A stretch of 64,000 nt of DNA from a virus (taxonomy: Duplodnaviria; Heunggongvirae; Uroviricota; Caudoviricetes): IMG/VR virus record IMGVR_UViG_2724679236_000008; one strand, written 5' to 3'. Shown here one piece after another: positions 44,936-46,320 of the stretch (the stretch's first letter is position 1; every line of letters begins with the position of its first letter). The position numbers were made by a program, and so were the translations under genes. The notes under the pieces were generated by a model that did not search any database, had not been told where the DNA came from, and saw nothing but the letters and a program-made list of their open reading frames with translations.

Positions 44936-45031
44936 GCATGCTTAATAAATACTCAATTGGATCTAATGACCTCTTTTTTTTAAAGGCGAAAATATGTACC
45001 CTAAATTAGTTATAAGGCAGGTGAGGTTATA

Positions 45032-45163
45032 ATGAGAAAACTATTACTACCGTTATTATTTATGGCTGGGACTGTTAATGCAGCATCACGCGTAAAGGAG
45101 ATTTGTACCGATTATACGAAATACCTTGGGCAAGTTTACGCCTTTGCGATCAATGACTATTAA
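45032..45163 (+). CDS. secreted small protein, 43 aa
   Basis: Signal peptide MRKLLLPLLFMAGTVNAA; AT-rich island; below track cutoff. Confidence 0.4.
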   Translation: MRKLLLPLLFMAGTVNAASRVKEICTDYTKYLGQVYAFAINDY

Positions 45164-45166
45164 TCC

Positions 45167-45502
45167 ATGCGTAGGAGTGGATTTATGCTGATTCGTTTGT
45201 TTTTAGTGCTTTCCTTTTTAACATTTAATGTTTTTGCTGATGAAGTTGACTTTTCGAAGGTGGATTGCAATTCAGTGGAAACAAGAAAAGCTCTTATTGA
45301 AGAATATAACGAAATATTATCGTCATATGGAATAACAGTGGTTGATTATTATAATCAAAAAACTATTCAGAAAGGAATAAATAAACTGGTCTGTTATGGG
45401 GTTTACAAATATTCAGATGGCTCTTCGGAGTATGTTATTTATAAAGCATACCCAAATAGTCTTGGTGAATTAATTAGTGAGTTTAAACCGATTAATGAGT
45501 GA
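45167..45502 (+). CDS. secreted or membrane-anchored protein, 111 aa
   Basis: N-terminal hydrophobic signal (LIRLFLVLSFLTFNVFA); AT-rich. Confidence 0.5.
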   Translation: MRRSGFMLIRLFLVLSFLTFNVFADEVDFSKVDCNSVETRKALIEEYNEILSSYGITVVDYYNQKTIQKGINKLVCYGVYKYSDGSSEYVIYKAYPNSLGELISEFKPINE

Positions 45503-45509
45503 ATGAAAA

Positions 45510-46289
45510 ATGAAATTATTTAATGTAATAACATTTTGTTGTGCTATTTTTGCTGGAAGCGCGATAGCTGATAATAAATTGCCAGATTGGCTTTCTACCT
45601 CAAAGAAAGATTATGATTTAGTAAGGGCATTCTATTTGTCTGGATTTGCTTCGAAAGCAATGAGCAATCAATTTGGTTATCATTTGCCATCTGAGTTGGT
45701 TAATGATTTTAAAGATAATGAATTTGCTGCTCAGGAAAAATGGAACACAATTCCAATTGTGTATGGTGAAATAAAATCCATAAGAATGGTGAATAATAAA
45801 CCAATTGTAGAGTTATTTACTCCAGGGGAAAATGCAACGCCACTAAATTATATCAAATTGAAAATATTGGATTCAAAGCAAGACTCTCTGTTAAAACTAA
45901 AAAAAGGGGATGATATATATGCAGTGTGCTCCGGTGCTAATTTTAGCTTAGTGCCAATTCTGAGCAACTGCACTCCAGCAACAGACGTCATTGATGCTGC
46001 ACTCTCTTTTTCTGGTGAATATATGTTCCCTGCTTTTGATTCTTTTTCACCTACTAAGCAAAACGTCAAATATATATTCACAAATCAAGATCCTGTTCAG
46101 ATGATGAATTTTATAGGGTACCTATCCTTAGTCGATACAACGAAGGATAAGAATAAAATGGATATGGTTCGTAAGTGTACGCCTTGGAAGCCGGAATGTT
46201 CACAACAATTCGTTGATGTAATGGAAGGATTTGATAGCATCATGTATAAATATGAGGGAGAATTTAAAAATTACATAGAATTAAAATAG
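45510..46289 (+). CDS. secreted protein, 259 aa (possible superimmunity Sim-like)
   Basis: Signal peptide MKLFNVITFCCAIFAGSAIA; AT-rich codon usage; position next to c4-icd-ant. Confidence 0.5.
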   Translation: MKLFNVITFCCAIFAGSAIADNKLPDWLSTSKKDYDLVRAFYLSGFASKAMSNQFGYHLPSELVNDFKDNEFAAQEKWNTIPIVYGEIKSIRMVNNKPIVELFTPGENATPLNYIKLKILDSKQDSLLKLKKGDDIYAVCSGANFSLVPILSNCTPATDVIDAALSFSGEYMFPAFDSFSPTKQNVKYIFTNQDPVQMMNFIGYLSLVDTTKDKNKMDMVRKCTPWKPECSQQFVDVMEGFDSIMYKYEGEFKNYIELK

Positions 46290-46320
46290 TATTTGAAAGG
46301 ATAGTTAATTTAAGTTTTAA

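Follow-up and report, generated by a model that had tools for sequence, protein, structure and literature searches.

The closest described counterpart of the genes reported here is the sim locus of phage P1, also treated by Lobocka et al. in 2004. The sim locus was reportedly defined genetically as a superimmunity gene by Devlin et al. in 1982, shown to cause superinfection exclusion by Kliem and Dreiseikelmann in 1989, and sequenced by Maillou and Dreiseikelmann in 1990, who also purified the processed protein. The Sim papers are reported to describe normal P1 adsorption, no block to transfection and the SecA-dependent removal of a 20-residue signal peptide. The present report concerns a locus of this kind in the IMG/VR virus record IMGVR_UViG_2724679236_000008 (Caudoviricetes), from which a stretch of 64,000 nucleotides, hereafter called the window, was analysed. 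The locus is an AT-rich island at positions 44950-46300, for which a first-pass annotation, made from the raw sequence, had suggested by position a role in blocking superinfecting phage.

Imm of phage T4, SieA of P22 and gp15 of HK97 are inner-membrane proteins, and Ltp of Streptococcus phage TP-J34 is a lipoprotein; Sim, by contrast, is soluble and exported. Like Sim, these proteins and T4 Sp are phage or prophage envelope proteins that act once the phage has adsorbed but while its DNA is still outside the cytoplasm, a class in which Sim appears alongside T4 Imm and P22 SieA in a list of proteins that block translocation of phage DNA (PMC9952470). In contrast to this functional likeness, Pfam, PHROGs and PADLOC scans revealed no sequence relationship between Sim and T4 Imm or Sp, SieA, gp15 or Ltp. 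The sim locus is described as conferring superinfection exclusion (PMC9177967), Sim as a protein that may block DNA injection into the cytoplasm by superinfecting phages (PMC8546580), and simC as the superinfection exclusion gene (PMC2409434). Among the three Sim proteins, an experimentally assigned role exists for SimC only, SimB being annotated only as a putative accessory function. Our analysis covers the identity with P1 sim, the anatomy of the operon, the signal-peptide features and the purifying selection that acts on simB and simC, whereas for the exclusion phenotype and for Sim processing we rely on the literature.

Identity with the P1 sim operon

Three same-strand open reading frames (ORFs) lie head to tail on the plus strand of the island, and encode 43 (45032-45163), 111 (45167-45502) and 259 amino acids (aa) (45510-46289). 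As open frames they have the sizes given in the first-pass annotation; two of them are read differently here, SimB as more probably a 105-aa protein and SimA as a gene remnant rather than an intact gene. In a megablast search against phage records, the DNA is 98.5% identical across the whole query to P1 46576-48268, annotated as simA, simB and simC, and 97.6% identical to M34382, the original 'sim region' record. Identity to the P1 proteins is 41/43 residues for SimA, 109/111 for SimB and 258/259 for SimC. Judged by its sequence, the island is the already described sim superinfection-exclusion operon of a P1-type phage-plasmid. The suggestion of sim-like factors acting in the periplasm was therefore well aimed, as the ORFs correspond to the sim genes themselves, whose role in exclusion is published. 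We consider it very probable that the operon acts as in P1, with an exported, periplasmic SimC excluding superinfecting P1. Genes, order, position and regulatory surroundings are common to P1 and the window, which differ by approximately 25 substitutions.

Some of these differences bear on gene models. In the P1 annotation, SimA is 52 aa long and SimC 264 aa, both with N-terminal extensions. The upstream simA ATG of P1 is ATT in the window, and a TGG within the P1 simC extension is TGA. Consequently, only the short forms of SimA and SimC, which start directly with the signal peptide, are open here.

The island is 100% identical to a region of the Escherichia albertii plasmid pEA4_97 (IncY, 97 kb), in which the neighbouring genes also match those of the window. 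Among 5,426 complete E. coli genomes, 127 contain at least 80% of the island, nearly all of them on a plasmid, and the same holds for 137 PLSDB plasmids.

Composition and limits of the AT-rich island

The GC content of 44950-46300 is 0.333, compared with 0.470 across the 64-kb window. No other 1351-bp stretch of the window has a lower value (mean over all such stretches 0.469, standard deviation 0.033, z = -4.2), in agreement with the first-pass description of an island visibly richer in AT than its surroundings. The only second stretch with a GC content below 0.40 is found at ~4.1-6.1 kb.

Comparison with P7, SJ46, Ro157c2YLVW and two metagenomic/genomic P1-like contigs places the island edges at 44934 and 46447, slightly beyond the interval initially delimited. 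Homology to P7, SJ46, Ro157c2YLVW and the P1-like contig L005 ends at 44933 and restarts at 46448, and homology to L006 likewise restarts at 46448. We therefore define 44934-46447 (GC ~0.33) as an exchangeable slot, a variable AT-rich cassette site whose flanks, but not whose interior, are common to P7, SJ46, Ro157c2YLVW and L005. The slot edges coincide with the last bases of the operator Op51 and with the start of the late promoter LPsit. In L011, a relative that carries a full-length simA, the GC content of this gene is 0.44-0.45, compared with 0.31-0.35 for simB-simC, which indicates that the AT-rich module proper is simB-simC.

The low G+C content of simABC and its place as one of the eight variable regions of P1-like phage-plasmids have been published (PMC9603915). 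With reference to the P1 genome paper, PMC6906374 describes sim as recently acquired and its locus as low in GC. As the operon, its low GC content and its variability are all in the literature, both the observation and its interpretation are already known. The locus in the window is ordinary, apart from its broken first gene, simA.

Two minus-strand ORFs in the island (77 aa, 45848-46081; 55 aa, 46264-46431) were considered and rejected as chance ORFs, being unsupported and antisense to the conserved simC.

Export signals

Signal peptides were judged by a rule-based check for a charged n-region, a hydrophobic core and small residues at positions -3 and -1. The N-termini of SimA (MRKLLLPLLFMAGTVNA|AS), SimB (...LIRLFLVLSFLTFNVFA|DE) and SimC (MKLFNVITFCCAIFAGSAIA|DN) all pass the check for Sec signals, and n-h-c regions and AXA-type sites are found in the three proteins alike. 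The attribution of signal sequences to all three products in the first-pass annotation thus holds under these rules. The predicted SimC signal features K2, a hydrophobic core at residues 6-15 and an AIA|DN cut at residue 20. Neither a lipobox ([LVI][ASTVI][GAS]C) nor a further hydrophobic span was found in SimA, SimB or SimC, which do not fall into the lipoprotein class. The rule is passed by only 3 of the 83 window ORFs of at least 100 aa, namely SimB, SimC and an Ail/Lom-family outer-membrane protein. The conserved cysteines in the mature parts are even in number (two in SimB, four in SimC), and these counts fit periplasmic disulfides.

simB and simC

The 111-codon frame of simB is open from ATG 45167, but the start is most likely ATG 45185, as judged from the sequence, giving an exported protein of 105 aa with two conserved cysteines (45185-45502, plus strand). 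AGGAG is found 7 nt upstream of ATG 45185, the Prokaryotic Genome Annotation Pipeline (PGAP) calls SimB at 105 aa, and the phrog_14329 profile begins at SimB residue 7. Moreover, simB begins at the equivalent point in L005 and L011, downstream of unrelated upstream genes. The ratio of nonsynonymous to synonymous substitution rates (dN/dS) is 0.20 relative to the 89%-identical L005 copy. The SimB family is small, with 13 hits in a library of billions of proteins.

A SimB-like domain (52% identity) is found behind a signal peptide in orf79 of phage D6 (L008 2848-3744), where a C-terminal part of 160 aa, unrelated to it, is joined to the domain; the gene is not located near the D6 icd-ant region. 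The possibility that orf79 is a SimB-SimC fusion was rejected, as the C-terminal 160 aa have no similarity to SimC.

simC (45510-46289, plus strand) encodes the 259-aa superinfection-exclusion precursor and matches phrog_14355 (E 5e-186). The protein consists of a signal peptide (residues 1-20), a region spanning residues ~21-60, a core (~60-155) and a C-terminal region in which the pair CTPWKxxC is conserved. Mature SimC is acidic, has a mass of ~27 kDa and contains four cysteines; the pairs Cys140/Cys154 and Cys223/Cys230 are kept in full-length relatives. The dN/dS relative to the 89%-identical L005 copy is 0.36. The family is tiny, with 15 hits in the exhaustive library, and 4, then 14 clusters in a word-indexed search.

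The SimC core (~60-155) is probably a remote version of the PF12869 (tRNA_anti-like) oligonucleotide/oligosaccharide-binding (OB) fold, as evidenced by SimC relatives that score above the family threshold. These relatives (P0012, P0015 and P0014) reach 53.8, 43.7 and 25.9 bits, and hit SimC at E-values of 9e-9, 7e-4 and 5e-5, respectively, in the exhaustive library of 1.84 billion proteins. For the relative P0002 (84% identity), the PF12869 score is 15.4 bits. In the alignment, SimC and its relatives share the pattern NDFxxNE...KxGD...C...C. PF12869 proteins, many of which have an N-terminal signal or anchor, include the conserved domain of Clostridium difficile TcdC; SimC differs from them in scoring below the family threshold and in having extra N- and C-terminal regions. 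To our knowledge, no nucleic-acid binding has been described for SimC. The TcdC domain linked to PF12869 binds nucleic acid in vitro (PMC3575817), which is a resemblance to SimC, not a test of it. A SimC family profile gave no meaningful match to PDB sequences, no PADLOC-DB 2.0 family was hit at E <= 0.1 by SimA, SimB or SimC, and no relatives were found in an NCBIfam search.

simA, a remnant gene

The first gene, simA' (45032-45163, plus strand), encodes a signal peptide followed by 26 aa, and its status as the remnant of an exported protein of 179-215 aa is well supported by sequence comparison. SimA matches only positions 1-41 of the 213-position phrog_3933 profile, and shows 85% identity with the N-terminal part encoded by full-length simA of L005 and L006. 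Full-length simA encodes 215 aa in Ro157c2YLVW, L005 and 84 PLSDB plasmids, and 179 aa in a Salmonella arizonae plasmid (L010) and in L011; the signal peptide and the first 41 residues are shared with SimA in both forms. The homologues map to L005 1921-2568, L006 1726-2373, L010 2501-3040 and L011 3411-3950.

The DNA of Ro157c2YLVW is homologous to the window as far as 45171. At the junction, the window reads ...AFAINDY*SMRRSGF|MLIRL, and the full-length gene reads ...GFAVSQDESMRKKLLSDM. From this comparison, ATG 45167 is a relic internal methionine codon of simA, not the simB start. The short form is preceded by the Shine-Dalgarno sequence GGTGAGG. Over the 43 simA codons, dN/dS relative to L005 is 0.61, a value that rests on few sites. 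The simplest history for P1, as read from these sequences, would be that an operon of three genes, like that of L011, lost part of simA by deletion.

In the Klebsiella plasmid pMCR_SCKP-LL83 (L013 162-632; MF510496.1 47561-48031), the simA stop codon, which is TAA in P1 and in the window (45161-45163), is replaced by AAA. As a result, simA' and simB form one in-frame ORF of 156 aa. In the window, simA' and simB are likewise in frame with each other, and the 156-aa ORF spanning both indicates that the deletion joined the simA and simB frames.

A Sit-like motif in full-length SimA

Sit is a tape-measure/injection transglycosylase, a virion protein that must cross the periplasm, and it carries an SLT transglycosylase domain. 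In full-length SimA, a stretch of 47 residues is 49% identical to Sit 927-969 (window 51444-51572), with an E-value of 6e-9 in the pairwise comparison and of 2e-7 against all window ORFs. A second copy in Sit, 997-1041 (window 51654-51788), is matched more weakly. The motif N-x-x-GMR-x-x-x-V-Q/E-GTLE-x-RARG is kept in a 59%-identical Salmonella SimA homologue and in L011. The other proteins of the slot cassettes were also considered as mimics of virion proteins and rejected; only the 215-aa form of SimA matches a window ORF, namely Sit.

An exported copy of a Sit segment suggests competition for, or recognition of, the contact made by that segment. Full-length SimA may act as a periplasmic decoy of the tape-measure/transglycosylase, and a decoy or Sit-binding mechanism is put forward here as speculation. 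Against the decoy idea, P1 and the window lack the Sit-like part of SimA, which was lost with the deletion, and the literature credits exclusion to SimC alone.

Slot content in P1-like elements

Five architectures were observed between Op51 and LPsit. P1 and the window carry simA' + simB + simC, and L011 carries simA-long + simB + simC. Ro157c2YLVW and the S. arizonae plasmid feature simA-long together with a gene for a YfjT-family exported protein. L005 combines a gene for a 107-aa membrane protein with simB, simC, simA-long and a YfjT-like gene. P7 (L002 3911-4975) and SJ46 (L003 3918-4982) carry an unrelated pair, encoding a lipoprotein and a DUF5384 protein. The lipoprotein has a sub-threshold match to TraT, a surface-exclusion/complement-resistance family (23.1 bits vs a threshold of 31), and the DUF5384 protein has an annotated signal peptide. 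Every slot product seen bears a signal peptide, a lipobox or membrane segments.

The cassettes of L011, Ro157c2YLVW and S. arizonae resemble that of the window in occupying the slot between the immI operon and pmgC and in encoding exported products. SimA of these relatives is homologous to that of the window over its signal peptide and first 41 residues, and L011 has homologous SimB and SimC as well. In contrast, SimA in these relatives is 179-215 aa long and features the Sit-like motif, whereas the window keeps the first 43 codons only. In L011, a divergent P1-like plasmid, an IS605-family TnpB/OrfB gene (2108-3238, minus strand) is inserted between icd and the sim slot.

Flanks and regulatory elements

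The first-pass annotation had placed the island next to a c4-icd-ant immunity region, which is identified here on the left flank. The C4 antisense RNA of the immI operon (44653-44738, minus strand) was found both by Rfam (RF01695, 70.8 bits, E 3e-13) and in the P1 annotation, and the a1/b1 target sites of this RNA (44806-44858, minus strand) by Rfam (RF03163, 56.2 bits). Both icd and ant follow the C4 RNA on the same strand and are 97% identical to P1. The promoter P1c4 (formerly P51b) of the divergent c4-icd-ant operon maps to 44852-44880 (minus strand), where a consensus scan gave TTGACC-17-TATAGT, in accordance with the P1 annotation (our P1 record L001, 4046-4074, offset 40806). Next to it lies the C1 repressor operator Op51 (Oc4), at the left slot edge (44919-44935; L001 4113-4129), the sequence of which, AAATTTATTAGAGCATT, is identical to P1.

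Transfer of the annotation from L001 (97% identity over 44300-46999) gives the P1 order repL, kilA, ant1/ant2, icd, C4 RNA, P1c4/P2c4 and Op51. On the other strand, past Op51, the order is again that of P1, i.e., predicted PsimA, simA, simB, simC, LPsit, pmgC, tub, pmgB and sit. The genes thus lie between Op51 and the pmgC-tub-pmgB-sit late operon, the position expected of a P1 sim operon. PsimA, a sigma-70 promoter predicted in the P1 annotation (L001 4135-4161), corresponds to 44941-44967 (plus strand). Downstream of simC, a putative intrinsic terminator (46322-46355, plus strand) consists of a stem of nine pairs (AAAACGCCC/GGGCGTTTT) and a tail rich in T, and this region is kept in L005 up to 46370. 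LPsit (~46450-46468, plus strand; L001 5643-5661, offset 40807) forms the right slot edge, and is followed by pmgC (46500-47066, plus strand), the first gene of the late operon, present as an ORF and in the P1 annotation. In P1, an in-silico scan predicted ArgR-box-like sequences, a pair of them within simC and a further one where simA and simB meet (45163-45167 in the window) (PMC2409434).

Other features of the window

The Ail/Lom-family outer-membrane protein is a beta-barrel protein with a signal peptide, encoded at 40907-41422 (minus strand) and adjoining repL, where P1 has rlfA/rlfB. The GC content at this gene is somewhat low (0.39-0.43), and SJ46 has the same arrangement.

A second low-GC stretch (2979-8968, plus strand; minimum 0.38 at ~4.1-6.1 kb) contains type I restriction-modification-like genes, as judged by reading the translations. 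A methylase-like frame, split into two ORFs (2979-4010 and 4127-4540, plus strand), is followed by ORFs that resemble a specificity subunit (4537-5730) and a helicase/nuclease (1038 aa, 5852-8968), both on the plus strand. The corresponding variable region of P1 is occupied by its type III res-mod system.

Discussion

A mechanism can be outlined by combining the anatomy of the operon with the literature on P1. The sim genes would be transcribed divergently from c4-icd-ant, starting just past Op51 and ending at the hairpin before LPsit. The 259-aa SimC precursor would be exported through the Sec pathway and cut after AIA, with loss of the 20-residue signal, and the mature form would reside in the periplasm. 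There it would keep the DNA of a superinfecting P1, which adsorbs normally, from passing through the envelope, so that the effect would be superinfection exclusion rather than repressor immunity. The OB core of SimC may bind the incoming injection apparatus, the most plausible target being Sit, or possibly the DNA end. SimB, an 87-aa periplasmic protein in its mature form, could serve as an accessory partner, and SimA would be the inactive leftover of a third exported partner. A broader version of this scheme is doubtful, though worth stating. In it, the ancestral sim operon would have encoded three exported proteins that act by mimicking or binding the incoming Sit segment, with the SimC OB fold as the binder, and the slot would be a site dedicated to the exchange of exclusion cassettes.

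Several observations weigh against exclusion by SimC as outlined above. The classical Sim phenotype was reportedly seen with multicopy clones, and for this reason the contribution of sim in a single-copy lysogen is uncertain. The exclusion phenotype is known from P1 only, and at residue 52 SimC of the window has S where that of P1 has N, the one difference between the two proteins. The target of Sim is identified nowhere in the literature searched. As for expression, PsimA is itself only a prediction in the P1 record, its -35 box in the window (CTTAAT vs TTTAAT in P1) is further from consensus, and a sigma-70 consensus scan found no sim promoter in the window, PsimA included. The OB-fold assignment is weakened by the score of SimC residues 62-154 against PF12869 (19.1 bits, E 1e-3), which is under the 23.5-bit gathering threshold. 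AlphaFold2 models of SimB and SimC, built from alignments that are too shallow (7 and 5 sequences), reach a mean predicted local distance difference test score (pLDDT) of only 48 and 34, respectively.

The weakness of the promoter is central to a different account, in which sim is an essentially silent, decaying cargo of the lysogen, consisting of AT-rich, H-NS-bound DNA, with the truncation of simA as the first sign of decay. The remnant status of simA, the frameshifted or chimeric SimC fragments found in databases (P0003, P0004 and P0011) and the failure of the scan to find an upstream consensus promoter all fit such a scenario, as does a CRISPR interference screen in which simA, simB and simC were non-essential for lytic growth (PMC10695390). 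However, simB and simC are intact and, at dN/dS values of 0.20 and 0.36, under purifying selection; they are nearly unchanged in the 127 E. coli genomes and 137 PLSDB plasmids, and an intact three-gene version is present in a divergent plasmid. We regard silent cargo as quite unlikely. In another account, the island is a horizontally acquired moron cassette that benefits the host through an envelope or fitness function (for example, resistance to serum or colicins, or a change in permeability), in which case P1 exclusion would be a multicopy side effect. Cassettes are swapped at the slot, which holds an unrelated lipoprotein and DUF5384 protein in P7 and SJ46 and a YfjT-family protein in others, an Ail/Lom protein is encoded nearby, and AT-rich composition is typical of acquired cargo (PMC6906374). 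Yet the published phenotype is exclusion of P1, and the SimB and SimC families, with few hits among billions of proteins, are almost confined to P1-like elements, so that a phage-specific target fits better than a general host function. A host-directed role is highly improbable on these grounds.

Exclusion of phage could be achieved by another route, if SimB and/or SimC inhibited the muralytic activity of the SLT domain of incoming Sit, as T4 Sp does with the gp5 lysozyme, rather than DNA transfer as such. Both are predicted to be small, acidic, disulfide-containing periplasmic proteins, Sit has the transglycosylase domain that such an inhibitor would need to act upon, and the sim operon adjoins the sit late operon. 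On the other hand, searches of Pfam, PDB sequences and PADLOC revealed no similarity to families of lysozyme or transglycosylase inhibitors, and the structure models, at pLDDT 34 and 48, are too poor for a fold comparison. Inhibition of the transglycosylase is unlikely, and we favour a block to DNA entry exerted by periplasmic SimC.

The locus has been in the literature since 1982-1990, and the main value of the analysis lies in the recognition of a superinfection-exclusion locus from raw sequence in the first-pass annotation. As by-products, gene models in the P1 annotation can also be corrected. The handles that the analysis offers on the target of Sim are the Sit-like motif that full-length SimA carries, the probable OB-fold core of SimC and a precisely bounded slot that always holds exported proteins.

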